A stretch of DNA of 22,560 nucleotides from Paraspadella gotoi. Its lineage: Eukaryota; Animalia; Chaetognatha. This document shows positions 211 through 22,523 of this stretch, one piece after another (position 1 is the stretch's first letter; the number at the start of each line of letters is the position of its first letter). The notes below the pieces were generated by a model. The model was not told the origin of the DNA. It ran no database searches and was given only the letters and a program-made list of their open reading frames with translations. The position numbers and the translations under genes were made by a program. The stretch lies in the NCBI GenBank assembly GCA_051294375.1, contig JBJCIZ010000223.1:1-22560 (forward strand), in the 5' to 3' direction.

Positions 211-663
211 NNNNNNNNNNNNNNNNNNNNNNNNNNNNNNNNNNNNNNNNNNNNNNNNNNNNNNNNNNNNNNNNNNNNNNNNNNNNNNNNNNNNNNNNNN
301 NNNNNNNNNNNNNNNNNNNNNNNNNNNNNNNNNNNNNNNNNNNNNNNNNNNNNNNNNNNNNNNNNNNNNNNNNNNNNNNNNNNNNNNNNNNNNNNNNNNN
401 NNNNNNNNNNNNNNNNNNNNNNNNNNNNNNNNNNNNNNNNNNNNNNNNNNNNNNNNNNNNNNNNNNNNNNNNNNNNNNNNNNNNNNNNNNNNNNNNNNNN
501 NNNNNNNNNNNNNNNNNNNNNNNNNNNNNNNNNNNNNNNNNNNNNNNNNNNNNNNNNNNNNNNNNNNNNNNNNNNNNNNNNNNNNNNNNNNNNNNNNNNN
601 NNNNNNNNNNNNNNNNNNNNNNNNNNNNNNNNNNNNNNNNNNNNNNNNNNNNNNNNNNNNNNN
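211..663. other. Assembly gap (N run)
   Basis: 453 consecutive N; ORFs 112..705 and 208..693 are artefacts of the gap. Confidence 0.99.
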
Positions 664-3188: not shown

Positions 3189-4335
3189 TTAGTAATTTTT
3201 TCTATGGAGGGTAAGTTTTAAGTCCGAACCCTGTAGGTGCCCAAAGTGCCTGTGGATTCGCGTTGTGTTCTGTTCGGCACAGTTTGGTGGGACCACGAAT
3301 TTCCTTGTGGGTGTCTCTGCTTTATAACCCTTGATGATTAGGATCCCATTTTCGGTGACATCAAGGTCGGCAAAGCTGTTGGAGAGGTACCTCTCGGTCA
3401 ATGTTCTCCTCTTTTGCATTTTCTCTTCCAGCTTTCTTTTTGCCCCTTCGCGGTCGCCCTTGCTCAGAGCGTCAGTCACCAGATGGATGGTCTCATCTTT
3501 GCGTTGCCAGGCTTTGATTTCTGAACCCATAAGGACTATCCCTTGGATCCTCTCCTGGGGCCTAGTGACTTCCTCCATGATCTCATCCTCAGTTGCATCA
3601 ATGTCGGCTTCAAGGGTGCTATCGACCATCGCCTCCTGCCCCATTTTTGGATCTGCTGTCTTGACAATTTGTACAGTGTCGCCACTTTTTATTGCTGCAA
3701 GGGGCGGCGCGTGGGCTTGGGTTTCTGTTTCCACCTGGATGTTTACGAGGTCATCTGGAAGAGCGTCAGCATGGTGGGTATTGACTTGTAGCCGTTTTGG
3801 CCTCTTTTGTCTTTCAGGTCGCCTGAGGGTGGCTACCTCAATTGTCTTGATCGGACTAGTTATGGAGTGGGCGTTGCTGGAGTTGGTCGCTGATGAGGCT
3901 CACTTGACCTGTAATGGTCCTGAAGATTTTCATTTGTCTGTTGTATGTGTTGGCGCCATATACTCTTTCAAACTTGCAGCCGGCCTCCTGTGTGGAATCC
4001 TCATCCATCATGACAATTTTGACTCCTGTCATCTCACTGAGGAGTTCCAGCTCAGGGTGGCCGAGGCTCCAGTCCTTTGCCGATATTGTCCTGATAAAAG
4101 TGTCGCATCTTTGGTCTTTGGCTTCCATAGAGTTTGCCAATGTTGTCTCTTTTTGATTGAAACTTGCGCACAAATTCAAAGAATTTTGCTCTAAATGCTT
4201 TGGTATCTTCCTGGAGGTTTGCGCCATTAGAGCCAGAGTGGGAGCGTGTCCAGTGCGCGAGCATAAATACAAGATATGATTAATGACCTCTTGTGTCCCC
4301 TTAATTTTTGTGATTTGATATAATACTATGCCCAA
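3189..4335 (-). pseudogene. Truncated, frameshifted Gypsy-like pol fragment (pre-integrase linker and start of integrase Zn-binding region) preceded by an OTU-like segment
   Basis: GC-richer island; EIKAWQRKD...ENGILIIK...KFVVPP...RIHRHFGH matches the Gypsy segment leading into the integrase HHCC; upstream WSLGHPELELLSEMTGVKIVMMD resembles an OTU helix; frameshift near 3900. Confidence 0.6.
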
Positions 4336-4521
4336 AGATAAAAAAAATGAAAATTCGCTCGCTCAATTTTCCCGTTCTATCCATTTTAAAAGCAATTTTA
4401 TGTAAAAAAATTGTAAAAAAATAACAAAATTTGATATCAAAGAAAGCTGGTTAAGTTCACTTTTTAAAGTAAAATATAGCTAAAACAAAGAATTTAAACC
4501 CGTTTTTATCCATAAAAATTT

Positions 4522-5363
4522 AAAATGCATAAAAGTCCTACAAACAAAGATACATAGCTGGCTCTAAAATATGTTCTCTCAAGGCAATATCTAAACATTT
4601 TTCAAAATGTTTAAAGCTAATGCTAAATCATCTTAAAGTATACTATCAAGTAGTTTTTCAAAGATCTGGAATAAAACATTATTGGATAATTGATAATTCT
4701 TTGGAGTTTTTTGGAAAAAATTTCTCAATTAAAAACAGATTTTCTAGAAACATATGATTTTTCAACATTATATCCATCACTTCCTCATTATGAAATCAGG
4801 AGTAAGCTAATAATTACATTCAGAACAATTTTTTCTAGGGAAAATAAAACATATATAAATGTAAATCATAATAAAGCTTATTTTTCAAATACTAAGAATA
4901 AGGGGTATATTTTTTTTACTGAGAAAGATTTGAATATTGTCCTCAACTTTATTTTAGATAATGTTTTTGTCAAATTTGGCTCCTTAATATACAAAACAAA
5001 CATTAGGAATACCAATTGGACTAGATTCTGGTCAAGATATTGCCAATATGTTGTTTATTTATTTTTTGAATCAACATATATGGAAAATATGTCAAAAAAT
5101 AATTTAGGAATCGCAAGACAATTTAAAAATTGCTCAAGATATATTGATGACCTATTTATTCAGCCGATTTTAAGGATTTTAAAATACATTTTGCGAACAT
5201 ATATCCAGCCGCACTGACTGTAAATAAATCTAATAGTACAGATACAAATGTAGATTATCTAGACATTAATATTAAATCAGAAAATAAAAATCTTACTCTT
5301 TCAGTCTATGATAAAAGGGATTCCTTTTCTTTTGAAGTAGTTAATTACCCATATATGGACAGT
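4522..5363 (+). pseudogene. Penelope-like element reverse transcriptase, frameshifted and truncated (Naiad/Chlamys-like motifs)
   Basis: Across frames: KMHKSP..YIAGS, HYWIIDNS, TYDFSTLY, QTLGIPIG, RYIDDL, VDYLDI, YDKRDSFSFEVVNYPYMDS; several single-base indels. Confidence 0.88.
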
Positions 5364-6122
5364 AGGGCGGATCATATGCACATATAATTTTTCAAAATAT
5401 GTTGCCTGTCGGTGATTCCTTTACCTAATGTCGTTTTATTTGATTACACAATAATAAATTCCAAAAAAATATTCAGGATCCATTGCAGATTTTACAATTT
5501 TTAAAAGAATCTTCAATTGCGATCTGTGATTGGTGGAAATTGGTCATGTGACCATCCAATTTTAGTTTTGGTTTTATTTTTACTTAATAAAAAGTTGTTT
5601 CTCGGTTAGCAATATAAATTTTACGTATTATAGATATTGTATATTATAATATATTATATTATATATATTATAGATTATAAGATTTATGAACAATATCGGA
5701 ATTTGTATTTATCGGGTCACAAGTGATAGAAGGAGAAGACGATGCTAGATATTCTTCACTTTCTCTTATTTAAAAATTGTAAATTTCAGATAAAACAAAA
5801 TGGACAGAAATTACTTAGAGGGTAACACACTTTCTTTCTTTCTTTGCCCCAATTGCTCATTGATACCATTTCCCTCATTTAATTTTCCTGCCCTGTCATC
5901 AATTTGGCAAGACAAAGTCTCCTTATGTCTGCCTCCAACCGCCAGACAATGTTGGGTGTCTTTTTTGAGATTGATAATTGTTACGCAATTTTTAGTTGAA
6001 TATTTTTTACAATTGTTTGCTGCTTTGAGAATTATGTTAAAGATATCTCGCCTCGCTTAACCTTTTTCGTCATTTGACCGCTTTTAGGCCAATTAATTTT
6101 ATGGTCATATATTCGCGGGCAG

Positions 6123-6236
6123 TTGTCTCCCGCCTCAATTTTCCGTTGTTTACGGGAGAGATACGTAAAGGAGGATTGCCGTTCAGAGAGCCGTTGCGGT
6201 GCCTGCAATGGGCTACATCACACGTCGCTTCATGAT
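6123..6236 (+). pseudogene. Short remnant of a BEL/Pao gag Cys-His region
   Basis: FRCLRERYVKEDCRSESRCGACNGLHHTSLH fits the BEL/Pao C..C-x2-C-x3-HH-x2-LH knuckle; no flanking ORF. Confidence 0.7.
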
Positions 6237-7882
6237 GAGTTCCATGAATGTTTGAGCTGCCTCAACTTTCTGGGTGACTTTCGAGATGGCGACGATCGTG
6301 ATTTCAAATGTTTGTCTATTACAAAATGATTAAAAACAGTTCACAAATCATAAAAAGTCCATTAATATATAAACAAACGGTCTTAAAACCTCAATTTTCA
6401 GAGAGATTTTTCGATCGTAGTAGTTAGTTTCACTTGAAATCTCACAAATACTGTTTCGCCCGGTGAAAGAACGTTTTGCCTCGTCTTTATATCTTTATCT
6501 CGGTCACATGAACGCGTCCTTATTGTAAGCATTTTTACGGTCAATTTTTGCTCTGGTCGTCTCAACGTTTAGCGAGAATCTCGATCAATTTTAATTTGTT
6601 TTCTGGATCGAATCATGAACTTTTAATCGTCCGTTCGAAACTTAGTTTCTACGCGTTTCTATACCGTGTTTTGTGTGTTTTCCAAATAAAATTCGTTTCT
6701 AGAACTCTTGTCGATTTATTTTGAATGGACGACGCTTGGAACGTTAGTCTCCGCGGGCGAGAATATAGATTCTTCTACAGTAGAAACGAAGAAACTGCTT
6801 CGCGGATATAACGTCGAATTTTTGCAATAAAAAAAAATGATGACTCTCAAAATTCTCTCGTCTATCGACGATGTTCATTTTCATTTATGTAAAAAAGTGC
6901 GCGCTTGAATTTCCTTCAACATTTATTGAAGTTTCAATGGATTTGAAAAAGATTCTTGTTACTGGTCTGAAAGAAATAAAGGCTATGAATGAAACAAAGA
7001 CTAAAGAATTCGCTAACGAAATCTTTGGAAGAATTGAAGGATTCGGAAACCTTGAAAAACAATTTCGTGAATCCATTGCCCTCAATGAGGCGGCGATGAA
7101 AAGGATTATGACAGAGACTTGGGCTCAATTTGGAAAAAATGAAAGAAGACGAGATTTCTGCTAAAGATCATGAGCTTTTTCAAAATCAAAATAATTTTTC
7201 AAAATCTGACCACTATTCTTTCTCAATTCTGTGTTGGAAACTCTCTCTCTCTTTGTAAAAGTCTTATTTTTTTATTCGCGACGTTTTCTCTTGGAAACTC
7301 ACGTTAAACTGTTCGACTGGGTGAAATCACGAACGCTTGTCTCCGCGGGCGTGAAGTCAAAAAGATGTTGAAAAGTGTTGAAGGTAATAAGCACACTAAT
7401 AAATATCTGTTTGGTAGTATCCTTATAACGGTCTGTAGGACAAAAAGCATTTATGGATTGATAGATTGATAGATTCAGAAAGGGTTTTCAACCTAAAGAA
7501 AAACTGAATATGCTGGAGTTTATACTAATGTTTACCATTTCCTTTTTTTCACATACCAAAATGACAAAAGAACAAAAACCTTCCCTGGTTAGACTTTTTG
7601 CATTATGGATGAAATGGGAACAAAGTTCAGTTATGGATTTCTCATTTAATATTTTAAGAATTCTGAACTCCATAAACATTATCCATAAAAGAGTCAATAC
7701 TTTTTATTGATCGAACTCTTAATGTAAATGCATCAGTGAGTAGTGATTTTTAAAAAAATTCTGGTTTTGCTGGATATATATGTAAGTTAAAATAAAGACC
7801 ATAACATACTGGTTTAAAATTGACTAAGAGGGTTACGAAGCAATATATTTTTCACAAAACTTGCAGGGACCTGCTATGTCAT

Positions 7883-7944
7883 TATCTTGTAAGAGTGATG
7901 GAGCCTTAAACCACCAAAGCCTGTCCAAAGTCAGGGGCAAGATA
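7883..7944 (+). ncRNA. Twister ribozyme type P5, family A copy 1
   Basis: TATCTTGT AA GAGT GATGG AGCCT TAA ACC AC CAAAG CCTG TCCAAAGT CAGG G GCAAGATA; one G missing in P1 relative to the other copies; predicted cut 7907/7908. Confidence 0.78.
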
Positions 7945-8204
7945 GCTTATTTATTAAATGAATGGATAATTTTTATATTGGTTGTACCAATTTCATAAAA
8001 TTCAGCTCCTTGTATTTTGATGCTAGTGCGGAGTACAATAGTATTCCCCGATCTAATACTTAAGGGAGTGGTCTTTTCATACAATTGAAAACATTCTTTG
8101 AAATATTTTCCACTTCATTGATAGGGAAGCCAGGTACTCTGGGAGTGAATAAACGAGACTGTGAAAGAGTCTTGATTGAAACCTTGCAGGGACCTGCTAG
8201 TCAT

Positions 8205-8267
8205 TATCTTGTAAGAGTGATGGAGGCCTTAAACCACCAAAGCCTGTCCAAAGTCAGGGGCAAGATA
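8205..8267 (+). ncRNA. Twister ribozyme type P5, family A copy 2
   Basis: P5 TATCTTGT/GCAAGATA; L1 GATGG and TAA; T1 TGG/CCA; T2 AC/GT; P4 CCTG/CAGG; predicted cut 8230/8231. Confidence 0.85.
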
Positions 8268-8531
8268 GATTATTTATTAAATGAATGGATAATTTTATAT
8301 TGGGTTGTACCAATTTCATAAAAATTCAGCTCCTTGTATTTTGATGCTAGTGCGGAGTACAAAGAGTATTCCCCGATCTAATACTTAAGGGAGTGGTCTT
8401 TTCATACAATTGAAACATTCTTTGAAATATTTTCCACTTCATTGATAGGGAAGCCAGGTACTCTGGGAGTGAATAAACGAGACTGTAGAAGAGTCTTGAT
8501 TTGAAAAACTTGCAGGGACCTGCTATGTCAT

Positions 8532-8594
8532 TATCTTGTAAGAGTGATGGAGGCCTTAAACCACCAAAGCCTGTCCAAAGTCAGGGGCAAGATA
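8532..8594 (+). ncRNA. Twister ribozyme type P5, family A copy 3
   Basis: Same core as copy 2; predicted cut 8557/8558. Confidence 0.85.
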
Positions 8595-8964
8595 GCTTAT
8601 TTATTAAATGAATGGATAAATTTTTATATTGGTTTGTACCAATTTCAAAAGACTTTCGGGTGCAATCTTTACTTTTTTAGCCCGGATCGCTTTCGGTTTT
8701 GAGTGCACATCGCTTCCTTCCTTTAGAAATTTTACATTTGTTATTATTTATAAAATACTTTCTTTAAGACATGTAATTCATTGGTAGAATAATTTTAAAC
8801 AATCTTTTTTGTTAACAAATAATAACAAGTAAAATTTTACTATGAAAAATTGTAAGATTTGTAAGATTGTAAGAATCGTTCGAGTGGAAATAAGTTTAAA
8901 TGAAAAAACAAAAAACCTGTTTCCCTATTTGCTTTTTATTTTTTATTAAATGTAAATACAAGCT

Positions 8965-9502
8965 GCATTAATTATTCAATTAATTAATAAATCAATCAAT
9001 TAAAAAATCAACTAATCCATCAAAAAATTAATGAATCAATAATTTTATCAATCAATCAATTAATTAACCAATTAATTTATCAATCAACTAATTAATAAAT
9101 TTATTTATCAATAAATTATTAAAAGAACCAATTAAATAATTAATCAATCAATTAAACAATGTCAGTATTATCATTATCGTCATCTCCAACGTCGTTGTTG
9201 CTTTTATCCTGGTCAGTTAAGCAATTAAATTTCATTTAATTGATAAATCAATCATTTAATTAATCATGATGGTGTTATCCTCGTCGTCATCATCATCATG
9301 GTCGTCATTTCTTTTGTCATAATGAAAAGACAAAAAAACAAACAAGTTTGAGCTAATAATGCCAGAACTGATCAGTTAATTAATTATTCAATCAATTAAT
9401 CAAATATTCAATCAATCAATCAAAAAATTAAGCAATCAATCAATAAGTCATCGTCGGTGTTATCATTGTTGTGGTCGCCATAATTAATTATTTAATTAAT
9501 TG
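8965..9502. repeat. Low-complexity AATC/AATT tetramer-rich tract with (TCG/TCA)n patches
   Basis: Degenerate AATCAATC/AATTAATT runs visible directly. Confidence 0.75.
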
Positions 9503-10955
9503 AAATTTTTTTATGTTTGCGGTGACTCAAAACAAGAATTTATAGAAAAATTTGAGGCGTGTTTTTTGTGATAAAGAAAAACTGGTATTGTCAAAAACAG
9601 TAAAAAAGCAAAAATGATAAAAATAATAACAACAACAACTAGTATTTACATTGGCTGAGAAAAAGGTCAGCCATAACAAGGTCGGGTAAGAACAAGTTAT
9701 TCTTATTGACCACTACTTTACTACAGGTCACAAAGTACAATGACTTTGTTGTCGTCTTTGTCATTGTATTCGTTGTCGTTGTCGTCTTTGTTCAAATCAT
9801 TTGAGCTCTCAAATGTTTGATGTTATTCTTTTAATTAATCAATATATAATTATTTAAATAATTTATTTTTTTTAAACTAATTAATAAATTAATTAATTAC
9901 CGTTAATGACCGTGGGCAGATCCGGCATTGTTTGCTCAAACTTGTTTATTAATAATTTTGATTTATTTATTTTATATATATTTTTTTTATTTGCTTTTTT
10001 GTTCAGTGCGAGAGGGGAAAAAAAGAAAAGATAGAGAGTGTTAAAGATATAAGTATGTATAAGCACAACATTATGCAATATTGCCAATAAAAAAGATCCA
10101 TCCTTTTGGTTCAAACTTGTTTGTAATATGAAAAACCTTATGGATTTAAAAAAAGTAGACTTAAATTTAAAGAAAAACAACAAAATTATAAGAAATAAAA
10201 TTTTTAGTTTTATAAAATTAAAAAAGTTTAATTATATTTTAGTTTAACTTATAATTACAGTTTTTTCAGATAAAAAAATCTTTTGTTCAGCTCAGATTTT
10301 ATTTCAATATATTAAAAAGAATAATTAAAAAAATAAATATATAATTTTTTTCATAGATTCTCGACCAAAGAGGAAGAGAGAACAAAAGAAAACAAAAAAA
10401 TAAAAGAAGAGAATGAGAAAACGTGAATAAAAAAATTAAGAGCAAACAATTTTAAATATTGAAAATAAATATTGAAAAAAAATTAAAAAAAAAAATCAAG
10501 AGAGAGCAGGGGGTTGCAAAGATTTTAATACATTAAATACCTTTCATTTCTAACCAATAAAAACAAATGACCAGGAAGCGAACACGCAGGGTTATTATAG
10601 CTTCCGTGTTCAATCCTTTATTCTCAATTTTTCTATCGCTCCCGGTTTCGGGTTCTTCAAAAATCGGCCGCTTCCACAGTGTTCGCTTACGCTTTCCGGA
10701 TTGCGTCCACATCTCTGAAAGAAAGCAATATATGTTTGATTAAATAATATCGATTAAATACTAAATCCTGCGATGATAGAAAAATAGAAAAATAGAAAAT
10801 AGTGAAACAAGTAATTTGCAAATTTTCATAAAGGTTATTAATACAACTGTATGGTAGACTAAAACCCACCAACCGTTTCATCAGCGCCATTGGTGCCGGA
10901 GGCAAGTCATTCGCCTCCCAACCCAAGGTCCGGGGTTCTAGCCCGGTGGTCGTCT

Positions 10956-11031
10956 GGCAGTTAAGAGGGACGGGGCGCTTAACCCGCCTGTAACATGTGT
11001 TACAAGCCTGATCCGAAGCTCAGGGACTGCT
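10956..11031 (+). ncRNA. Twister ribozyme type P5 in LTR1 (family B)
   Basis: GGCAGTT AA GAGG GACGG GGCGCT TAA CCC GC [P3 CTGTAACA..TGTTACA(A)G] CCTGA TCCGAAGC TCAGG GACTGCT; predicted cut 10980/10981. Confidence 0.85.
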
Positions 11032-11252
11032 TATATTGAACGGTTCTGTCACTAACAGATAACAATAATTACTGTCTCTTCATTGGTAGGCCCGACTTCC
11101 GAACACAACAGCAACAACAACACTTTCAGGCGACATGCCTCAACCTGGCGATGCACTTTCCGCCCACACACATCAGGCAACATGCCTCAACTTGGTGACG
11201 CACTTTCCACCAACAACAATTCACTGAAGAGACGCAACAGACATCTTCCTAC

Positions 11253-11264
11253 AGGAGGGGGGGA
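11253..11264 (+). promoter_or_regulatory. Polypurine tract of family B element
   Basis: AGGAGGGGGGGA abutting the TG of LTR2; repeated at 11672-11682. Confidence 0.9.
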
Positions 11265-11299
11265 TGTATGGTGGACTAAAACCCACCAACCGTTCATCA

Positions 11300-11371
11300 G
11301 CGGCCATTGGTGCCGAGGCAAGTCATTCGCCTCCCAACCCAAAGGTCCGGGGTTCTAGCCCGGTGGTCGTC
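11300..11371 (+). promoter_or_regulatory. tRNA-derived (Gly-CCC-like) head with Pol III A/B-box-like motifs inside the LTR; also in LTR1 (10884-10954), LTR3 and the solo LTR (18917-18989)
   Basis: Acceptor-like GCGGCCA/TGGTCGT, T-arm CCGGG-GTTCTAG-CCCGG, anticodon-loop-like CTCCCAA, ~72 nt; anticodon stem is broken, so not a functional tRNA. Confidence 0.7.
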
Positions 11372-11372
11372 T

Positions 11373-11448
11373 GGCAGTTAAGAGGGACGGGGCGCTTACC
11401 CGCCTGTAACATGGGTGTTACAGCCTGATCCGAAGCTCAGGGACTGCT
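11373..11448 (+). ncRNA. Twister ribozyme type P5 in LTR2 (family B)
   Basis: Same fold; the TAA is read as TA here (real loss or homopolymer error). Confidence 0.72.
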
Positions 11449-11500
11449 TATATTGAACGGTTCTGTCACTAACAGATAACAATAATTACTGTCTCTTCAT

Positions 11501-11513
11501 TGGTGAGCCCGAC
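11501..11513 (+). promoter_or_regulatory. Primer-binding site (tRNA-Trp-like) of family B element
   Basis: TGGTGAGCCCGAC one base after the LTR CA; 12/13 match to TGGTGACCCCGAC, the complement of the common animal tRNA-Trp 3' end. Confidence 0.8.
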
Positions 11514-11791
11514 TTCCGAACACAACAGCAACAACAACACTTTCAGGCGACATGCCTCAACCTGGCGATGCACTTTCGCCCACAACACATCAGGCAACAT
11601 GCCTCAACTTGGGTGACGCCACTTTCCACCAACAACAATTCACTGAAGAGACGCAACAGACATCTTCCTACAGGAGGGGGGATGTATGGTGGACTAAAAC
11701 CCACCAACCGTTTCATAGCGGCCATTGGTGCCGGAGGCAAGTCATTCGCCCTCCCAACCCAAAGGTCCGGGGTCTAGCCCGGTGGTCGTCT

Positions 11792-11869
11792 GGCAGTTAA
11801 GAGGGACGGGGCACTTAACCCGCCTGTAACATGGTGTTACAGCCTGATCCGAAACTCAGGGACTTGGCT
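11792..11869 (+). ncRNA. Twister ribozyme type P5 in LTR3 (family B), T2 pair mutated
   Basis: L4 reads TCCGAAAC instead of TCCGAAGC; P1 GGCACT; otherwise the same fold. Confidence 0.68.
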
Positions 11870-12058
11870 TATATTGAACGGTTTCTGTCACTAACAGATA
11901 ACAATAATTACTGTCTCTTCAACTTTTTAAAATTTTTTGTTTATTAATGAAAATTTAAAAGAAAAAAATTCAGCCAATAATGATGATGATGACGATTTTT
12001 TAAGGTTTTTTCTATTTTTACTAATTTTTTCAAAATTTGAAAAAAAATTATAGTACTA

Positions 12059-12673
12059 TGTAGGATCGAACCACGGACTTTTTCGTTTGGAGTGATCCGG
12101 TCATCATCCGGGACCAGCCAGGGTCACAAAAGAATCATTTTTCGAATGTACATAATTATCTTATAAACTTTACAATTACAATAAAAGGATCACCAACGGG
12201 ATTCGATCCCGTAACTTTGTAGCCACGTTCATAGCCTTAATCAAAGTCGCCACAGCGACATATTGCGTATTGATATTCCATTGGTTTACTTATGATTGTA
12301 GCATATATACTATTATAATACTAAGACAAAAGAACACCATAAAACCGCTAGATAGCACTAGCAATAATTGTTATGAATTCTACTTGTAGAATCTTTCCAC
12401 TTTAATTTCTTTGCTCTCTTACAAAGGACATTTTATATTGTTAATGTTTATTTACATTGTTGTTTATTTACATTCTTTATATTTAATGTTAATGTTTATT
12501 ATTGTGTGTGATATAGATATTGCAATTGCTTGCTGATAAAAGCATTTGAATATCTATATGCTTTGATTATTTTATTAAGTCTGTTTTTATACTTGAACAA
12601 ATAAAGACTTTGTTCTGGGAAAATTTTAATTATTCAAAGTGAACTCTTGAAGTCAGTGACGAAAACCGCCACA
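12059..12673 (+). repeat. 5' LTR (615 bp)
   Basis: TGTAGGATCG...CCGCCACA, direct repeat of 17419-18037. Confidence 0.97.
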
Positions 12674-12676
12674 TCT

Positions 12677-12690
12677 TGGTGAAACCCGAC
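12677..12690 (+). promoter_or_regulatory. Primer-binding site (tRNA-Trp-like, imperfect)
   Basis: TGGTGAAACCCGAC three bases after the 5' LTR. Confidence 0.75.
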
Positions 12691-12761
12691 ATCGAAATCG
12701 ACGCCTCCCAAATTCTCTAGAGGCGCCTTCCAACCTTCTGAACTCCAACATCGGCCCACCG

Positions 12762-13904
12762 ATGCCGCTCAAGCCAGAGGGCCCAACTACTCGGTCGCAG
12801 AGCATCGCCAATCGCCTCACGACGCCATCCTGTCCCCGACGCCTCACCCCCTCTCCCCGTTATAGCGAAGAAGAAGTTGAAGCACCCCCAGCAAACCGTA
12901 AAGGCGGCCCAACGTTCTCCTTCTCTCCTGAGGACGTCAACGCCTTTGAGGACGCCCAGGCAACTATGGCTGAAGCTCCGCCAACTCAGGCAGAGATGCA
13001 GGCGCTCCGCACCGCCCTCGACGCTGCAATGGCGGCGACCAAGGCTGCACAAGATGCTTTGGCCCGTAACGACAGGCCAAAAAAGCCTGAGCTCCCTCCA
13101 TTTGACAAAGACAATATTGAAATATGGATTCGCCGCGTTGAAGCGGCCTACGTCCGCGCTAAAATTATTTCTCCCACGGATAAGTTCGCGTTTCTTGAAT
13201 CAAAAATTTCCGTCGACGTCAACCCAAGGATCAACGCTTATCTTTACGGCGAAGCATCGGACGCCAACTGGGCGGCGTTCCTCGTTTATCTCCGCTCCGA
13301 GTACGGCCTCTCCACGCGGCGCCAAGCCGAAAACCTGCTCGACGGCCGCGTCAACCGAGATGGCATGAAACCATCTCAGCACTTGGCCAGGCTCACCGAC
13401 CGTACGGCGACCGTTTCCATCGACGATGTCCGTAAGGAGATAATCATGCGAGGCCTGCCCCCGGAAATCCGCGCGAATCTCGTCGACCGCGCCAACGAAA
13501 TGACCGCCGTACAATTTGCAGAAGCCGCCGACCGCCACTTCGACGCGGAGGGAAAGCCGTTGCACTCAAGCACAGCTCCGCAAATTAATTTGGCCGACGC
13601 TCAGAGGGACGTCAGCGACGACGAAAGCGATCAGGAGCCTCTCAGCGGCATCAACGCGGTTCAAGGTCGTCATGAAAAACGCCGCCCCTTCATTCCGCGC
13701 GGCCACCCAAAATTCGACGACGTCAATCAACGTCAACCGGAAACGAGCGGCGCCCAGACTTCCAAGCTCAGGCGTATTTGCAGATTCCATCTCAAATATG
13801 GCGACGCAGCATTCCGTTGCGAAAAAGGTTGTGCTCGAGCAAATGAAAAGCGCAACGAGAAGGAGATGAAAGCGGGAAACGCCATGGCGGGCCGGCGACG
13901 GTGA
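12762..13904 (+). CDS. gag: Gag (380 aa)
   Basis: LPPFDKDNIEIWIRRVEA capsid-like N-terminal motif; CRFHLKYGDAAFRCEKGC = C-x2-H-x9-C-x3-C knuckle typical of the CsRn1 clade. Confidence 0.95.
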   Translation: MPLKPEGPTTRSQSIANRLTTPSCPRRLTPSPRYSEEEVEAPPANRKGGPTFSFSPEDVNAFEDAQATMAEAPPTQAEMQALRTALDAAMAATKAAQDALARNDRPKKPELPPFDKDNIEIWIRRVEAAYVRAKIISPTDKFAFLESKISVDVNPRINAYLYGEASDANWAAFLVYLRSEYGLSTRRQAENLLDGRVNRDGMKPSQHLARLTDRTATVSIDDVRKEIIMRGLPPEIRANLVDRANEMTAVQFAEAADRHFDAEGKPLHSSTAPQINLADAQRDVSDDESDQEPLSGINAVQGRHEKRRPFIPRGHPKFDDVNQRQPETSGAQTSKLRRICRFHLKYGDAAFRCEKGCARANEKRNEKEMKAGNAMAGRRR

Positions 13905-13920
13905 ACGCCGTGCCCCGCCA
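13874..13920 (+). promoter_or_regulatory. -1 programmed ribosomal frameshift signal
   Basis: G GGA AAC slippery heptamer (13874-13880) in the gag frame; GC-rich hairpin TGGCGGG-C-CGGCG...CGCCG-TGC-CCCGCCA (13885-13920); the -1 frame is open from 13874 into pol. Confidence 0.88.
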
Positions 13921-16900
13921 AACCAAAGATTCGCCCACAAGATCCTATCTGCTCCACGTCGTCGACGCCAGCGACGGCCGAGCATGGCTTGTGGATGGCG
14001 GCGCCCTACTATCACTTATACCACCTACGCCAGAACAACGCGCCGCTGGCCCACAAGGTCCACAATTGCAGGCCGCCAATGGTAGTGCAATTGCCTGTTA
14101 TGGCACTAAGCAGATGCGAATTACCCTTGGCCCCCGCATTTTCCCCTTTGAAGTTCTCGTCGCCGATGTAACCCAAAATATTCTCGGCGCCGACTTCCTC
14201 GCCGAATTTTTCTTGGCACCAAACCATCGCGATGGAATCCTTTTTGATCTCAGAGATTATTCTACCATCTCCTGCGCCAAGTCAATCGGCCAGCCCCCTT
14301 CTCCAATCAATTTTGTCGGGCAGAAGGACGACCGTTTTTACCAACTGCTTGACAGCTTCCCAGCCCTGTCTAAGCCAACTTTCGAAGTTAAGGAGCCAAA
14401 GCATGGGATCCACCATTTCATCCCAACTCAAGGCCGTCCATGCCAAGCACGTGCCCGCCGACTGTCTCCGGAGAAGTTGGCCATTGCCAAGGCCGAACTC
14501 GATCGCATGGTGGCACTTGGCATCGCGGTCCGCGCCAAGAGCCCCTGGTCCTCGCCGCTGCATTGCGTTCCAAAGTCTGACGGCGGCTGGAGAGTGTGCG
14601 GCGACTACCGCCGTTTGAACGCCCAAACAGTTGCCGACCGTTACCCGGTTAAATTGTTGGCCGACTTCAACGCTCAACTGGCCGGCAAACACATCTTCTC
14701 GAAGGTGGATCTACTGAAAGGTTACCACCAAATTCCAGTAGCCCCAGAGGATGTGCCAAAAACCGCCGTCATAACGCCTTTTGGACTATATGTCTTCCTC
14801 CGGACGCCCTTTGGCCTGAAAAACGCTGGCCAAGATTTCCAGCGGCTCATGGATGAAATCTTGGGAGAGCTGCCGCGAGTCTACGTCTATTTAGACGACA
14901 TCCTGATCGCCAGTGAAACTCCCGAGCAGCACCTTGAGGATCTCAGGGCCGTTTTCTGCGCCCTGGAGGAGAATGGACTCGTGGTCAACAGGAAAAAATG
15001 TCTCCTTGGCAAATCGTCACTCGAATTTCTCGGGTATTTCGTCGACGAGAGTGGCGTCCGTCCCTTGCCCCAACGCGTCGAAGCCCTCCGTCAAACGACG
15101 CCGCCAACGACGGTCAAGGAGTTGCAGCGTTTCTTGGGGATGATTAACTATTATCGGCGTTTCATCCCCAAGATCGCTCACCACGCAACGCCACTCTACG
15201 ACTCACTTCAAGGCAAACCAAAGCACCTCGAGTGGACGCCAGAGTGCCAGCGTGGTTTTGACGCCGTCAAGGAGGCACTCGCAAACTCCGTCCTCCTCCG
15301 TCACCCACGAACCGGTGCTCAGCTTGCGTTGACAACGGATGCTTCCGACCATGCTGTAGGCGCTGTACTGGAGCAGCGTGGAGACAGGGGGTGGGAGCCT
15401 CTCGCCTTCTTTTCGGCCAAACTCTCCGACAGCCAAAGGAAGTGGCCCCCCTTTGACCGCGAACTATATGGCGCTTTCCGCGCCTGCCGTCATTTCCGGC
15501 CATGGCTCGAGGGGAGGGCGTTCACGCTCTACACAGATCATATGAGCCTGATCCCCGCCCTCCACAAGAAAAGTGAGCCCCAAACGGCGCGCCACACTTT
15601 CCAGTTGTCCGTCATTTCGGAGTACACAACGGACATTCGCCATGTCGAGGGCAAGGCTAACGTCGTTGCGGATGCCTTGTCCCGTCCAAACCCACCTCTG
15701 CCCCCGGTTGTGGCGTCAATCGACAAGCCCGTCGAAGCCGCAAAGGAAGAGGATCTCTCACTAGTCGCCGCGGCGCTCGCCCCTCAAGGCATCGACCTTC
15801 AAGACCTTGCTCGCTGCCAGCCACTCGACCGGGATTTCCGCCAACTAATGGAGGATTCCCGCACTGGCCTGAGATTCCGCCGAGTTAACATTGGCGACCA
15901 GGAAATCATTGTCGATGTGTCAAATGGGCCGGCACGCCCGTTTGTTCCCGAATCTTGGCGCCGGCGAGTTTTTGACGCCATTCATGGCCTTGGTCACCCA
16001 GGGATCGCACGTACCCGCGAAACAATCGCGGAAAAGTTTGTCTGGCCCACAATGCGAGCGGACGTCACCCGCTGGGCCCGAGACTGCATCCCATGTCAAC
16101 AAGCCAAGGTCTCGCGACACGTCGTCCCACAAATTGGCGAATTCGAAGTCCCTCCACGCCGTTTTCAACATATTCACGTCGATCTGGTCTCCATGCCCAC
16201 CTCAAACGGTCACTCATACCTGCTAACTGCAGTTGACCGTTTCACAAGGTGGCCAGTGGCCATTCCAATCAAGGACATGTTGGCTACCACGGTCGCCGAC
16301 GCCTTCACACATGGCTGGGTTGCCTCCTTTGGCATCCCGTCCGACATCACAACTGATCGTGGATCACAGTTCCTCTCTGCAATTTGGCGCCAACTCGCGA
16401 AATCCTGGAACTGCAGGCTCCACCACACTGCAGCCTACCATCCAGAAGCCAATGGACTGGTCGAGCGCTTTCACCGCCGCCTTAAAGAGTCATTAATCGC
16501 TCTCGGCGTCGAGGAGCCCGCCAAATGGTACTGGCGCCTTCCTTCCGCCCTCTTGGCGATTCGTACGACCATCAAACCCGATATCGGCGCATCTCCAGCT
16601 CAACTCGTCTATGGCGACGGCCTCACGATTCCTGGCGCCGTCTTAAACTCCAGCGCCAACGCCCAAGAGGAAGCTGAGGCACGGCGCCACCTTCGCGATC
16701 ACCTTCGCCTCGAAGTGGAACGACTGCAGCCGGCGCCCACCAGTAACCATCGCCAGCCCCGCGTCCACCTTCCGGACAGCCTCGTAACCGCATCTTACGT
16801 TTTCGTCCGACGAGGCGGCGTGAAACCGGCATTGACCGCGCCCTACGAAGGCCCCTTCAGGGTAGTCGGGCGTGATAATTTGAACTTCCGAGTGGAACTT

Positions 16901-17455
16901 CCAGGAAGAGGAGTAGAAACTATCGCAATCTCCAGAATCAAGCCAGCGAACGTCTGGGACGACGTCATCGAGGACGACGCCCCTCCGGAAGAAGCGTCAC
17001 CGCCAACGCCGCCGCCTCGCGGCCGGCGACCTGGCCCCCGAACTCGGAACATTCCCCCATCGTCAATCGTCACTCGCTCAAAAGCAAAAAGAGATAATAG
17101 AACTCAAGCAGTGAGTGAATCTCACGTCGAAGGCGAAGACCTCGCGGCGCCACTTCCGGCCACGCCCTCCCTCCATTCGGAGCAAATCGGCGAATCAACA
17201 GAAGCGGCCCGGGCTCATCCCGCCGCTGATCCGTTTCCCGTGACACCTCAACGCTTAGATCTCGCCGTCCAAGCATCGCCAGATGATCCCCGGCCGAACG
17301 TCAACGCGTCGTCACGCCCAGACTACGCATCGGTCCTCAGATTTATCCTCGCGAAGCAAAAGGAGCCCAAACGTGTCTCTCTCTCCTCGTCTCCCTCAGT
17401 CAACTCGTCTGGGGGGGATGTAGGATCGAACCACGGACTTTTTCGTTTGGAGTGA
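13874..17455 (+). CDS. pol: Pol polyprotein (protease, RT, RNase H, integrase), expressed as a Gag-Pol frameshift fusion
   Basis: LVDGGA protease; YLDD RT; TDASD...ADALSR RNase H; HGLGH...CIPC, HVD/TDRGSQF/VER integrase; PYEGPF GPY/F motif; no stops. Confidence 0.97.
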   Translation, partial: GKRHGGPATVNAVPRQTKDSPTRSYLLHVVDASDGRAWLVDGGALLSLIPPTPEQRAAGPQGPQLQAANGSAIACYGTKQMRITLGPRIFPFEVLVADVTQNILGADFLAEFFLAPNHRDGILFDLRDYSTISCAKSIGQPPSPINFVGQKDDRFYQLLDSFPALSKPTFEVKEPKHGIHHFIPTQGRPCQARARRLSPEKLAIAKAELDRMVALGIAVRAKSPWSSPLHCVPKSDGGWRVCGDYRRLNAQTVADRYPVKLLADFNAQLAGKHIFSKVDLLKGYHQIPVAPEDVPKTAVITPFGLYVFLRTPFGLKNAGQDFQRLMDEILGELPRVYVYLDDILIASETPEQHLEDLRAVFCALEENGLVVNRKKCLLGKSSLEFLGYFVDESGVRPLPQRVEALRQTTPPTTVKELQRFLGMINYYRRFIPKIAHHATPLYDSLQGKPKHLEWTPECQRGFDAVKEALANSVLLRHPRTGAQLALTTDASDHAVGAVLEQRGDRGWEPLAFFSAKLSDSQRKWPPFDRELYGAFRACRHFRPWLEGRAFTLYTDHMSLIPALHKKSEPQTARHTFQLSVISEYTTDIRHVEGKANVVADALSRPNPPLPPVVASIDKPVEAAKEEDLSLVAAALAPQGIDLQDLARCQPLDRDFRQLMEDSRTGLRFRRVNIGDQEIIVDVSNGPARPFVPESWRRRVFDAIHGLGHPGIARTRETIAEKFVWPTMRADVTRWARDCIPCQQAKVSRHVVPQIGEFEVPPRRFQHIHVDLVSMPTSNGHSYLLTAVDRFTRWPVAIPIKDMLATTVADAFTHGWVASFGIPSDITTDRGSQFLSAIWRQLAKSWNCRLHHTAAYHPEANGLVERFHRRLKESLIALGVEEPAKWYWRLPSALLAIRTTIKPDIGASPAQLVYGDGLTIPGAVLNSSANAQEEAEARRHLRDHLRLEVERLQPAPTSNHRQPRVHLPDSLVTASYVFVRRGGVKPALTAPYEGPFRVVGRDNLNFRVELPGRGVETIAISRIKPANVWDDVIEDDAPPEEASPPTPPPRGRRPGPRTRNIPPSSIVTRSKAKRDNRTQAVSESHVEGEDLAAPLPATPSLHSEQIGESTEAARAHPAADPFPVTPQRLDLAVQASPDDPRPNVNASSRPDYASVLRFILAKQKEPKRVSLSSSPSVNSSGGDVGSNHGLFRLE
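17411..17418 (+). promoter_or_regulatory. Polypurine tract
   Basis: GGGGGGGA abutting the TG of the 3' LTR. Confidence 0.9.
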
Positions 17456-18037
17456 TCCGGTCATCATCCGGGACCAGCCAGGGTCACAAAAGAATCATTT
17501 TTCGAATGTACATAATTATCTTATAAACTTTACAATTACAATAAAAGGATCACCAACGGGATTCGATCCCGTAACTTTGTAGCCACGTTCATAGCCTTAA
17601 TCAAAGTCGCCACAGCGACATATTGCGTATTGATATTCCATTGGTTTACTTATGATTGTAGCATATTATACTATTATAATACTAAGACAAAAGAACACCA
17701 TAAAACCGCTAGATAGCACTAGCAATAATTGTTATGAATTCTACTTGTAGAATCTTTCCACTTTAATTTCTTTGCTCTCTTACAAAGGACATTTTATATT
17801 GTTAATGTTTATTTACATTGTTGTTTATTTACATTCTTTATATTTAATGTTAATGTTTATTATTGTGTGTGATATAGATATTGCAATTGCTTGCTGATAA
17901 AAGCATTTGGAATATCTATATGCTTTGATTATTTTATTAAGTCTGTTTTTATACTTGAACAAATAAAAGACTTTGTTCTGGGAAACATTTTAATTATTCA
18001 AAGTGAACTCTTGAAGTCAGTGACGAAAACCGCCACA
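17419..18037 (+). repeat. 3' LTR (619 bp)
   Basis: Differs from the 5' LTR by about four single-base insertions, by eye. Confidence 0.97.
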
Positions 18038-18881: not shown

Positions 18882-19117
18882 TGTATGGTGGACTAAAATC
18901 CACCAACCGTTCATCAGCGGCCATTAGTGCCGGAGGCAAGTCATTCGCCTCCCAACCCAAAGGTCCGGGGTTCTAGCCTGGTGGTCGTCTGGCAGTTAAG
19001 AGGGACGGGGCACTTAACCCGCCTGTAACATGGTGTTATAGCCTGATCCGAAGCTCAGGGACTGCTTATATTGAACGGTTCTGTCACTAACACATAACAA
19101 TAATTACTGTCTCTTCA
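18882..19117 (+). mobile_element. Solo LTR of family B miniature element
   Basis: TGTATGGTGG...CTCTTCA, near-identical to the LTRs at 10848-11921; no PBS or PPT in the flanks. Confidence 0.95.
18991..19066 (+). ncRNA. Twister ribozyme type P5 in the solo LTR
   Basis: Intact core; P3 has a G-C to G-U change that keeps pairing; predicted cut 19015/19016. Confidence 0.82.
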
Positions 19118-19685: not shown

Positions 19686-20947
19686 TTGGCTATGGCTAAG
19701 TCACTGGAAGACGTTCTTGAGGATCTGAAAAGAGAAGCTGAACAGGCATCATTAGTTGCTCATCATGCCATTGCAGCTGCAAGGACCGCGCCTAGAGTTG
19801 AGCGCTTAAGGTCAATACAGAGTGCCAAGGATGCTTTCTTAAGATTTTGTGACAAAGTGACAAACGTTCCGCCAAGAGGGTGGAAAGACTCGTACCATAG
19901 AGATTAAGATCAAGAGAGCCTTAAGTAGGTTAGGCTCTACTCGTGAACAATACAAAGCCAGTCTTGATGCTATTGGAAAAACTCCTCCTTCTTCACCCAA
20001 TCTAGAATCTGTATCAACAGCAGCTACTTTTTCTGCTGATTTGGCTGTGAGTACTATAGCATCAACAACCTTGCCTTCTACTTCAGTGACAGTCGTTTCC
20101 CTTCCGCCGCCTCCTGCTTTGTCTAGGAGAACCTCTACATATGCATCTGCTGGTAGCCATTCTCGTCATTCATCTAAAAGCAGATCTACCGGGAGTTCTA
20201 CTTCTTCTAAGCGTGATCAACGTACAGCAACAAAGGCTGCTATTGAGCTTAAAAAGCAGCAATTAAGGTTTCAGTTCCTTAAGGAACAACATGGTAGAAA
20301 ACAGATAGAAATGGAGGACGAGCAAAAGCGTAAGCAGTTGGAATTTGAAGAGGAACAAAAGAGAAAGCAACAAGAGCTTGATGAAGAACTGAAGGAACAA
20401 GCCTTGGAGCTCAATATGCCCAACTTGATCTGGAAGGTGCTCTGGAGAATGTGCGAACCAGTGAGGAGGGGATTCAAGAGGACCCCATGTCACATCTAAT
20501 GATCGCGTTCAGAGCTTTCTTGAGAAAGTAGGACAACAGCCAGATTGTTCTGGCACAGGCGCACCAGATATTGTCATTGAGCCAGCTACTGGGTCAGCCC
20601 CTTCAGGATCTGTTTTTCAATTTCCTCACTATCCTCTCAGGCTGTGGCGGGCAGTCCTACTGGGCGTCCTCCTCTGCCTCCATCCTCCTACTCTCTACTA
20701 GTCTGCCCATTATACCTCCAACCCATTTGACTCAGCCTTCCATCCTGTTCCCATTTCAACCTTGACTTTACTCAGCCGCCACAATCGCTGCCATTTCTTT
20801 TGCCCAATTGCCCTTTACCAATCCTTATCCTATTATCAGGCTCCACTGACTCTCCTACAACAGCTACAACAGACCATTTCAACAACCCATTTTTTCTCAA
20901 ACTTCTATTCGCCCACCCATCACCATTCCACAGTGCGTTATGGCGAC
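19686..20947 (+). pseudogene. BEL/Pao gag N-terminal region, frameshifted
   Basis: Ser-rich SHSRHSSKSRSTGSSTSS followed by an E/K/Q coiled coil and a Pro/Ser/Gln-rich stretch; continues past the hAT insertion into a capsid-like segment. Confidence 0.7.
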
Positions 20948-20955
20948 ATCAGCAC

Positions 20956-22235
20956 TAATTCCGTAACCGTTAATTTTTTAGGAAATTCACTTACCGTTAA
21001 AACTAACATAACGGTTACACGTTAAGATCGGTTTAATTTTATAATTTAACTTTAAATTTAAAATATTAAGATTTAAAACAAACTAAAGTATTTAATGGTA
21101 TTTTCTCTTAACTCTGGCTCTTGAATGCGCTGATAAAGACTTGAAACAGAGTCGAAACATGTCTGTTGTTTATGTCAAATTATATTGTTGTTGTAACAAA
21201 ACAAATATTTTTGCTAATCTCATAACACAACGAAACGAAAGGATACCATCAAATTCTAATTCTATATTTTGTTTTCTCTTTCTCTCTTTTGCCTTCTCTT
21301 TTTCTTTTCTCTACTTCTTCTCTTCCTCATTTTTTTGTAGTTGTTAGTTTCTTAAACGCTTGTTTTCTGTTGTTAGTCTTTCATAAACTATGACCAATGG
21401 TCATTGACCATAAATATAAATACGACAACAACCGCGACAATGAAAACTGACATTTGACCAAGGTCAAGTTCCTGACCTTAAATCAACCTTACCTTTACTA
21501 CTGTTACTTTAACTATTTTAATTTATTGATAGACTAGTTGATTTATCGATTGATCAAAATATTTATTGATGAATAAAAATAATTTCAGTTTTAATTAAAA
21601 AGTATATCATCATTATTCTTTTTATATGTCTTTTTAAGATTCATTCCTTCTATTATTAATTTTTAAATTTTTAAAATAATTTTTTTTTTTGGTTTTTTAT
21701 TTAATTTTTTTTATTCATTTGGTTTTATTTCATTTGCTTCTTTGATCGTTTTAAAGAAGGAAAGAAAAAGAGAGAAAAAGTAAAATAAGAGGGATTATTT
21801 ATTTTTAGCAAAATTGAATATATATTATTGCATGAAATGGCAAAAAATGGAAAAAGGTAAAATCAAAGGGCGAAAAAAGGAGAAAAAAGAAAGGGGGAAA
21901 GAAAAAGGGGAAGTGAGAAAGAAAAAGAAAGGAACAGGAGGAGATAAATAAAGGGGAGAGAGAGATTAGGAAAGAAAAAAATAAAAAATAACAAAAGAAA
22001 AAAGTGGAGAAGAGAGAGACGGGTAAAAATATGGTAAGAAGGGGAGAGGAGAATAAGAGAAAACAGGAAAAAAATATATTTTTTTTTAAATTTAAAGATT
22101 TCATACCAAAAAATGAAAAAAATCACATTTGAAAATTAACCGAATTTAACCGTTAAAATAAATATATTAACGGTTAAGTTAAAAATTTTTTTAACCGTTA
22201 ATAACCGTTAACAGTTAACGGTTATCGGAACACTA
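20956..22235. mobile_element. Non-autonomous hAT-type DNA transposon (1280 bp) inserted in the BEL gag
   Basis: 8-bp TSD ATCAGCAC (20948-20955 and 22236-22243); imperfect TIR TA(GTG/A)TTCCG(A)TAACCGTTAA; subterminal TAACCGTTA/TAACGGTTA repeats; low-complexity interior. Confidence 0.88.
21128..21166 (+). ncRNA. Penelope-type minimal hammerhead, G8-to-A variant (probably inactive)
   Basis: CTGATAA-A-GACTTG-aaa-CAGAGTC-GAAA-CATG-TC; closely related to the motif at 2434-2477. Confidence 0.7.
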
Positions 22236-22243
22236 ATCAGCAC

Positions 22244-22523
22244 TCAACCCTGCAGCAGCTTCATGGTTTCCGACTTGCATCACAGCATTAGGCACTGGAG
22301 CCTCACAACTCCACAGATGCACACTGAATCGGTTATCGCTGTTCAGAACCGAGTGGCTTCGCTTCGTCCAAAACGCAAATTTAAGGGTGATAGGTTTCTC
22401 ACTCAGTTTGCGACTAAGGTTGAGAGTTCTTGCTTGACCTCTCAGGAGAAGTTTAGGGAATTGTTGGAGTGGGTAGAGGTTAAGGCCTATGATTTGATTC
22501 AGAGATTTGAATATGAGCAGTAA
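22244..22523 (+). pseudogene. BEL/Pao gag capsid-like (DUF1759-like) fragment
   Basis: KFKGDRFLTQFATKVESSCLTSQEKFRELLEWVEVKAYDLI fits F-x-GD..F...F...V...K...L...A..LI. Confidence 0.7.

Follow-up and report, generated by a model that had tools for sequence, protein, structure and literature searches.

The plant LTR retrozymes (Cervera et al. 2016, PMC4918200) are non-coding elements of the order LTR-PBS-internal-PPT-LTR with a ribozyme in each LTR and a 4-bp target-site duplication (TSD); they have Gypsy-like boxes and occur also as solo LTRs and three-copy tandems. Metazoan non-LTR retrozymes (Cervera and de la Pena 2020, PMC7229834) are short tandem units bounded by self-cleaving motifs, known as 170-400-nt circles and with dimer-dependent cleavage where one helix is minimal. 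Twister ribozymes have been described in viroid-like circles and in non-LTR elements, where they lie at the 5' end, and type III hammerheads in insect genomes are cited as work in preparation (PMC7761336, PMC7936874). The Helenus/TRIMp3 elements (PMC10886601) are TRIMs below 1 kb with a tRNA-like segment in the LTR, tandem arrays and, in the animal families, a 4-bp TSD; Kojima (2024) proposed that Helenus LTRs arose by SINE insertion (PMC10886601).

Here we describe a small element in a 22,560-nt stretch of DNA (the window) that is like the plant LTR retrozymes in each of the features just named (its ribozyme being a putative one), like the metazoan retrozymes in its short tandem units bounded by (putative) self-cleaving motifs, and like Helenus/TRIMp3 in size, arrays, TSD and a putative tRNA-like segment. 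We put the probability that this miniature LTR element, with its tRNA-like head and twister-like core, works as a Pol III-driven twister LTR retrozyme at roughly 60%.

A miniature LTR element in tandem

The element forms an LTR-I-LTR-I-LTR array at 10850-11921 (three LTRs and two internal regions, period 417/419), held in a GC-rich island; the surrounding window, which includes 453 N, is scaffold sequence from a eukaryote. All features below lie on the plus strand unless stated otherwise. LTR1 (10850-11082), whose TA...CA ends follow from alignment and junction contigs, leads into the non-coding internal region 1 (11083-11266). This opens with a PBS-like site of the tRNA-Trp type (11083-11096, by sequence match), contains a 47-bp repeat in 1.9 copies (11126-11215) and closes with a PPT (11253-11264) followed by TG and then LTR2 (11267-11499). 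Internal region 2 (11500-11684) has its own PBS (11500-11513) and PPT (11672-11682) and is followed by LTR3 (11685-11921). The PBS at 11500-11513 shares 13 of 14 letters, and an identical one-T spacer, with the Trp PBS of Gypsy-32_NVi and Helenus-2_SyJa (PMC10886601 supplement). At the 3' end of the LTR, nine nucleotides (11074-11082) are fully complementary to 11225-11233 in the internal region near the PPT, a complementarity equalled in 9 of 2000 shuffles.

Two LTRs, a PBS and a PPT within 650 bp (below 1 kb) of non-coding sequence, sharp recurrent termini and a short TSD are the characters of a TRIM. A solo LTR of the same family at 18884-19117 has a perfect TSD (CTTG/CTTG, 4/4), and the array is flanked by ACTG (10846-10849) and ACTT (11922-11925), a 3/4 match. 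ORFs across the array are short (97-110 aa), and the one array ORF scanned, 10690-11019 on the minus strand, had no match in Pfam. Pairs of array LTRs are separated by 1-3 substitutions and 8-10 gap columns (many of the latter in homopolymer runs), the solo LTR is 6-7 substitutions away from them, and the two internal regions differ by 2 substitutions. Non-coding LTR-PBS-internal-PPT units in tandem with a period of 417-419 bp, as first proposed in the sequence-only reading, are thus borne out by alignment, PBS and PPT sites and short ORFs. That reading placed the element at 10848..11921; the end holds, while the integrated element begins with TATGG at 10850, two nucleotides after the TG.

Eleven sequencing runs from five studies contain the stretch or part of it; nine are labelled as one organism and none is recorded as RNA. 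Contigs of four runs were aligned, and X10 (two contigs) and X11 (one contig), both of low depth, were left out as evidence. Run X3 yielded 17,281 contigs, with 4,684 at least 99% alike, 6,868 at 95-99%, 4,643 at 90-95% and 1,086 below 90%. Loose contig ends in X3 pile up before 11267 (132), behind 11082 (113) and behind 11499 (104), so the integrated ends are TATGG...TCTTCA. It is with the start at 10850 that the solo LTR has its perfect TSD and the array its three matching positions; TG...CA ends with a 2-bp duplication were rejected on the X3 junction contigs. The small element is a high-copy non-autonomous miniature LTR retrotransposon.

By X3 depth, all three array LTRs carry two minority alleles of the family, C at 11282 (93% T) and G at 11058 (87% C), which indicates that the array came from one template. 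Such an origin fits rolling reverse transcription and sister-copy unequal crossing-over alike. Rolling reverse transcription had been offered as the explanation of the tandem, and it is compatible with what we see; the layout is not diagnostic of it, as TRIMs without ribozymes commonly form LTR-I arrays too, which are ascribed to unequal recombination (PMC6934838), LTR-11_DR being another arrayed family (PMC10886601).

A full-length Gypsy element lies at 12059-18037, with gag at 12660-13904, pol at 13847-17455, a Trp-like PBS at 12677-12690 and, like the small element, a G-rich PPT (17410-17418). RT, RNase H and integrase are found in a 1202-aa frame beside a gag-like ORF, and the TSD is 3 or 4 bp depending on the LTR end chosen. 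It is a candidate for the type of helper that the small element would use; its LTR is unrelated to that of the small element, and the helper role therefore stays a candidate one. Only two of its best 120 homologues are named, both from a cestode. Its Gag motif CX2HX9CX3C suggests the label CsRn1, for which PMC2774666 gave no match. Relatives of a nearby Penelope-like fragment bear a GIY-YIG at the N-terminus. Inspection by eye also suggested BEL/Pao-like ORFs, which remained unconfirmed, with none of 72 ORFs reaching Pfam cut-offs and no homologues found.

The twister-like core and its relatives

LTR1 contains a type-P5-like twister at 10957-11030, made up of P5 (10957-61/11026-30), P4 (11007-11/11020-24), L4 (11012-19) and P3 (10989-11004). 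Within its core are L1 GACGG (10969-73), a palindromic hexamer (10974-79), the U^A step (10980/81), a P2 of 2 bp and the T2 letters GC (10986-87). Cleavage is predicted at 10980/10981, after 11397 in LTR2 and after 11816 in LTR3, which would yield monomers of 417 and 419 nt.

The Rfam twister models did not match the LTR motif, either at E<=1 over the whole window or at E<=10 on 453 and 86 bases. The Twister-P5 covariance-model check suggested by the sequence-only reading thus came out negative for the LTR, and it is by motif parsing and comparison that we call a twister here. The Rfam P5 model has no P3, and the LTR family has a P3 hairpin in the linker. Rfam hammerhead models likewise matched nothing in the LTR or the window. 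LTR1 and the solo LTR both have the catalytic G in L1, U^AA, L4, T1, T2 and P4. LTR2 has one A rather than two at the site, where contigs show an extra A; in LTR3 and the solo LTR the hexamer is non-palindromic (GGCACT), and in LTR3 T2 is broken as well. Of the initial claim that each LTR carries a type-P5 twister, the core is upheld by motif parsing, whereas every feature as assembled is found only in LTR1 among the four window copies.

A second, otherwise unrelated tandem at 7856-8650 (period 324, 2.4 copies) carries three twister-P5-like cores with sites at 7907, 8230 and 8557. It lies about 2 kb from the array, BLAST links none of it to the LTR unit, and no PBS was seen in it. The Rfam Twister-P5 model gave three weak matches there, at 23.6-25.8 bits (gathering 37.6) and E 0.11-0.42. 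A pattern drawn from both window families had a single match among metagenome contigs, L001 (Twister-P5 E 0.014, below gathering), which has P4 and a palindromic hexamer though the pattern asked for neither. The unit around L001 is 974 nt long and terminally redundant over 123 nt, and would be either a circle or a collapsed tandem. Family-specific patterns matched nothing in viral, metagenome or genome contig collections, and the one genome-contig match, L037, was by eye without P4 and was taken as chance.

By motif parsing, the seven window copies and L001 have a common order: P2', GA[C/T]GG, hexamer, U^AA, P2, T2, linker, P4, L4. T1 can pair in 8/8 of these and T2 in 7/8. Pairs also change in a compensatory manner across lineages: where the LTR family has C-G as its third T1 pair, the second tandem and L001 have U-A and the Rfam consensus has G-C; T2 is GC/GC or AC/GU, and P2 is CC/GG or AC/GU. 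In the LTR, P2 consists of two Watson-Crick pairs plus A-C. We also built a model from the second tandem and L001 only, two lineages that lack P3, with the LTR copies excluded. Three LTR 5' halves came out at the top of its 18 matches outside the second tandem (E 0.032, 0.032 and 0.051); LTR2 scored 1.5, and the 3' halves, split off by P3, 1.1-6.7. The pattern common to the LTR and the second tandem, although written from these very copies, matched six times in the window versus never in 100 shuffles. As a control, 35 viral rows match the bare core, and 33 of them fail P2 and P4, both of which the LTR copies pass. These comparisons support a twister-type core in the LTR.

Folding gave a mixed picture. 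P3, P4 and P5 are predicted to pair at 0.93-1.0, except for the outer P3 pair (0.43). In the predicted ensemble, where pseudoknots lie outside the model, the catalytic strand falls in a non-native helix (p 0.99) and the native P2 is absent. The isolated twister region has a fold z-score of -0.4 to -1.0, and the circular monomers reach -2.7 and -3.3 (60 shuffles) with 54-58% of positions paired. Conservation was compared on 40 of the 110 variant rows, less those in the P3 loop and three others next to indels. Variants fall on 1 of 70 twister positions and on 6 of 52 positions of the LTR tail (Fisher p 0.04), a faint hint that the core is conserved relative to the tail. The sole variable twister site is a G>A change in L4 at a position that pairs in T1; it accounts for about 14% of X3 depth, and no partner change is seen among the same 40 of 110 rows.

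Three lineages have a self-complementary hexamer (GGCGCT, AGGCCT and CAATTG, with duplexes of -8.3, -9.1 and -3.0 kcal/mol), where chance would give a palindrome in 5.3% of cases and 2 of the 33 failing viral control rows have one. The hexamer is non-palindromic in two of the four window LTR copies and in a twister-like phage motif (L030 and L036, identical in the motif) that passes both P2 and P4, and the second tandem has one five-letter copy. In the LTR, P1 would be a single base pair closing four nucleotides as a monomer, or 6 bp as a dimer; two LTR hexamers pair with p at most 0.006 in folding, which leaves pseudoknots outside the model. P1 is dispensable in twister according to a review (PMC6154101). 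By analogy with the dimer-dependent cleavage of animal retrozyme hammerheads with a minimal helix (PMC7229834, PMC7761336), we give dimer-assisted cleavage through the palindromic P1 about even odds. A dimer-cleaving minimal twister, if true, would parallel the dimeric hammerheads.

The tRNA-like head and the putative ribozymes behind it

Upstream of the twister lies a tRNA-like head of 71-72 nt (10883-10953 in LTR1, 11300-11370 in LTR2), which we read by the usual tRNA anatomy (acceptor stem, T-arm, boxes). A 7-bp acceptor-like stem is present in 3/4 copies, as is an adjoining 5-bp stem with a 7-nt loop, and the box B-like motif GGTTCTAGCCC at 10934 is exact in 2/4 (14 of 2000 shuffles). The acceptor and T-arm pass a joint test in two of four copies versus 7 of 5000 shuffles. 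Box A is imperfect and deviates from the Helenus TRGCY pattern, and neither ARAGORN nor Rfam called a tRNA on the head. Two common contig variants in the acceptor-like stem, at 11367 and 11370, turn G-U into G-C. The unit has no T4 run, which is at chance level (2644 of 5000 shuffles). The head is likely a Pol III promoter, and, as judged from the sequence, a tRNA-like head upstream of the twister resembles the Helenus/TRIMp3 layout. Neither this head nor the second tandem figured in the sequence-only reading.

We compared the element with the Helenus families themselves. TA-starting LTRs are found also in eight listed Helenus families, and Helenus-2_SyJa likewise has a Gypsy-type Trp PBS (PMC10886601). 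Among the 24 complete named Helenus LTRs inspected by eye in the supplement, 22 have a run of at least four T behind the head, where the small element has its twister and no such run. Three motifs of the small element are absent from this supplement (PMC10886601), and identity with Helenus-1_MLe of Mnemiopsis was rejected, as the sequence differs. Six twister L4 motifs occur there at five places, none in a twister context by eye, in a text whose line breaks can hide motifs.

Two of these published LTRs, Helenus-2_SyJa-LTR and Helenus-2_SyUm-LTR from Synergus wasps, appear by eye to carry a type III hammerhead directly behind the tRNA-like head (PMC10886601). The parts so recognised are the site GUC, stem I of 7 bp, stem II, the cores CUGAUGA and GAAA, and loops complementary to each other over 12 nt. 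Both elements have a Trp PBS, and their putative hammerhead occupies the position of the twister in the small element. This hammerhead seems to have gone unremarked in the two wasp LTRs.

Proposed mechanism, rival readings and known systems

Under our main reading, Pol III would start at the head of one LTR and continue past the PBS, the internal region and the PPT until it enters the next LTR. The twisters would cut after 10980 and 11397 to release a 417-419-nt monomer, probably aided, in the manner of dimeric hammerheads, by the palindromic P1 of one LTR copy pairing with that of the other within a single transcript. Twister cleavage leaves a 5'-OH and a 2',3'-cyclic phosphate, and these would be the ends of the monomer. 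A host ligase of the RtcB type may then circularise it, by analogy with the animal retrozyme RNAs that RtcB circularises in vitro (PMC7229834). Following the argument made for plant retrozymes (PMC4918200), a doubly cut monomer would be without the terminal repeat R, so that a circle would be needed to finish reverse transcription. The circle would be reverse-transcribed by a tRNA-Trp-primed Gypsy.

A wider proposal, to which we give somewhat less than an even chance, is that animals have Pol III-driven LTR retrozymes: Trp-primed Helenus-type TRIMs with an interchangeable ribozyme behind the tRNA head (a twister here, a type III hammerhead in Synergus Helenus-2), moving via RNA circles. The twister would then belong to a minimal P5 subtype whose palindromic P1 makes cleavage depend on a dimer, so that it fires only after transcription of two LTRs.

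The twister could instead be active as a 3' end-maker of a linear Pol III transcript, cutting only in the 3' LTR, so that about 98 nt kept at both ends form the R region and a linear TRIM RNA moves with no circle. The position of the twister, where nearly all the Helenus LTRs inspected have their T run, would suit such a role, and twister variants process the 5' end of linear Perere-3 RNAs (PMC8501958). One-sided cleavage is also plausible because folding predicts a ribozyme that is blocked by default. Yet both LTRs have the same ribozyme, which leaves no evident cause of asymmetry, and the same twister subtype occurs in a non-LTR tandem and a terminally redundant contig, settings typical of circles. 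We regard this linear route as unlikely.

Slightly less likely still is an ordinary Helenus-type TRIM that captured a SINE made of tRNA head plus twister, with the ribozyme a passenger and the array formed by unequal crossing-over. Kojima's SINE-insertion origin of Helenus LTRs (PMC10886601) would provide for the capture, and the commonness of ribozyme-free TRIM arrays (PMC6934838) for the tandem; moreover, three of the four window LTR copies have defects, and C>T plus G>A make up 42 of 90 variant places in X3. Against a mere passenger, the core appears less variable than the LTR tail, if faintly so, and the one-template array would fit rolling copying as well as crossing-over between sister copies. 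That the twister resemblance is chance, as the missing Rfam match of the LTR and the isolated-region z of only -0.4 to -1.0 might suggest, is very improbable in view of the pattern common to an unrelated tandem (six window matches versus 0/100 shuffles, for a pattern written from these copies) and the 33 of 35 viral bare-core rows that fail P2 and P4 where the LTR copies pass.

Should the Pol III-driven twister LTR retrozyme hold, it would contradict the statements (PMC7761336, PMC7229834) that animal retrozymes are without LTRs, PBS and PPT, and that all genome-encoded ribozyme circles use hammerheads. It would unite retrozymes and Pol III TRIMs, classes described apart, would suggest how a Pol III transcript without a terminator in the LTR gains defined ends, and would give twister ribozymes a part in LTR retrotransposition. 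A minimal twister can escape the Rfam models, and therefore further such families may be undetected. The sequence-only reading knew of no described twister-bearing LTR retrozyme in an animal-like genome, and this stands for the open literature (subscription papers, Repbase, Dfam and bioRxiv supplements being outside the scope), where we found neither a twister LTR retrozyme nor an animal LTR retrozyme. Neither type appears in the available parts of PMC4918200, PMC7761336, PMC5680766, PMC6765202, PMC8501958, PMC7229834, PMC7936874, bioRxiv 2022.07.19.500677, bioRxiv 2026.09.16.752053, PMC13725137 and PMC12859917.

Among known twisters, the core agrees with Twister-P5 (Rfam RF02684) in having L1, U^AA, T1, T2, P4 and L4 in P5 order, and shares with the S. 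mansoni T-variants a link to retrotransposons. It departs from RF02684 in its inserted P3, 2-bp P2 and 6-nt palindromic P1 and lies below Rfam detection; the S. mansoni T-variants belong to a non-LTR element and lie at its 5' end (PMC8501958). The metazoan non-LTR retrozymes have type I hammerheads and are stated to be without LTR, PBS and PPT (PMC7229834, PMC7761336), all three of which the small element has; it is the second tandem whose layout is nearer to theirs, but with a twister. With the animal Helenus families the small element shares the 4-bp TSD and Gypsy-type PBS, and it differs from Helenus in its imperfect box A and in its ribozyme, none being described in the available text of PMC10886601, where the word occurs once, in a reference. 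Compared with plant LTR retrozymes (PMC4918200), it has a twister-like core rather than a type III hammerhead, a tRNA-Trp rather than a tRNA-Met PBS, a predicted monomer of 417 rather than 600-1000 nt, a tRNA-like head and a likely animal host. In its working, the small element most likely resembles a plant LTR retrozyme, with a twister-like core in the place of the type III hammerhead by which that class is defined.

Retroelements, possible retroelement fragments and a simple repeat in the window

The Gypsy element at 12059-18037 is full-length and has a near-identical LTR pair. Its gag and pol frames are both open, and its Gag contains a CX2HX9CX3C motif; it likely inserted recently. A Penelope-like reverse-transcriptase fragment, whose relatives carry a GIY-YIG domain at the N-terminus, lies at 4690-5217. 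By eye, the ORF fragments at 6078-6329, 19861-20499 and 22212-22523 resemble BEL/Pao gag; Pfam supported none of the three, and no homologues were found for that at 22212-22523, the only one searched. Two GC-richer ORFs of 236 and 168 aa at 3189-4362 (-), one with a weak OTU-like Pfam match (E 0.013), are possibly a retroelement fragment. A degenerate (ATTA/ATCA)n microsatellite occupies 8967-9444.

Ribozyme-like motifs outside the window

The metagenome contig L001 carries, at 395-437 (-), a twister-like core of the same subtype as the window copies, with a palindromic hexamer in stem P1. It sits in a 974-nt unit with a terminal repeat of 123 nt and a longest stop-to-stop frame of 129 aa; this unit may represent either a circular RNA or a tandem that was collapsed. 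The viral contigs L030 and L036 share an identical twister-like P5 motif, at 597-638 (-) in both, in which P2 and P4 passed and P1 is 6 nt and non-palindromic.

In the wasp elements Helenus-2_SyJa-LTR and Helenus-2_SyUm-LTR (PMC10886601 supplement), inspection by eye points to a type III hammerhead 3' of the tRNA-like head, with a 12-nt loop-loop pseudoknot in each. PMC10886601 does not mention this hammerhead. Both families are candidate insect LTR retrozymes.

A second tandem with twister-like cores

The tandem at 7856-8650 (period 324, 2.4 copies) contains three twister-P5-like cores, and no PBS was seen in it. It looks like a non-LTR retrozyme with a twister replacing the hammerhead.
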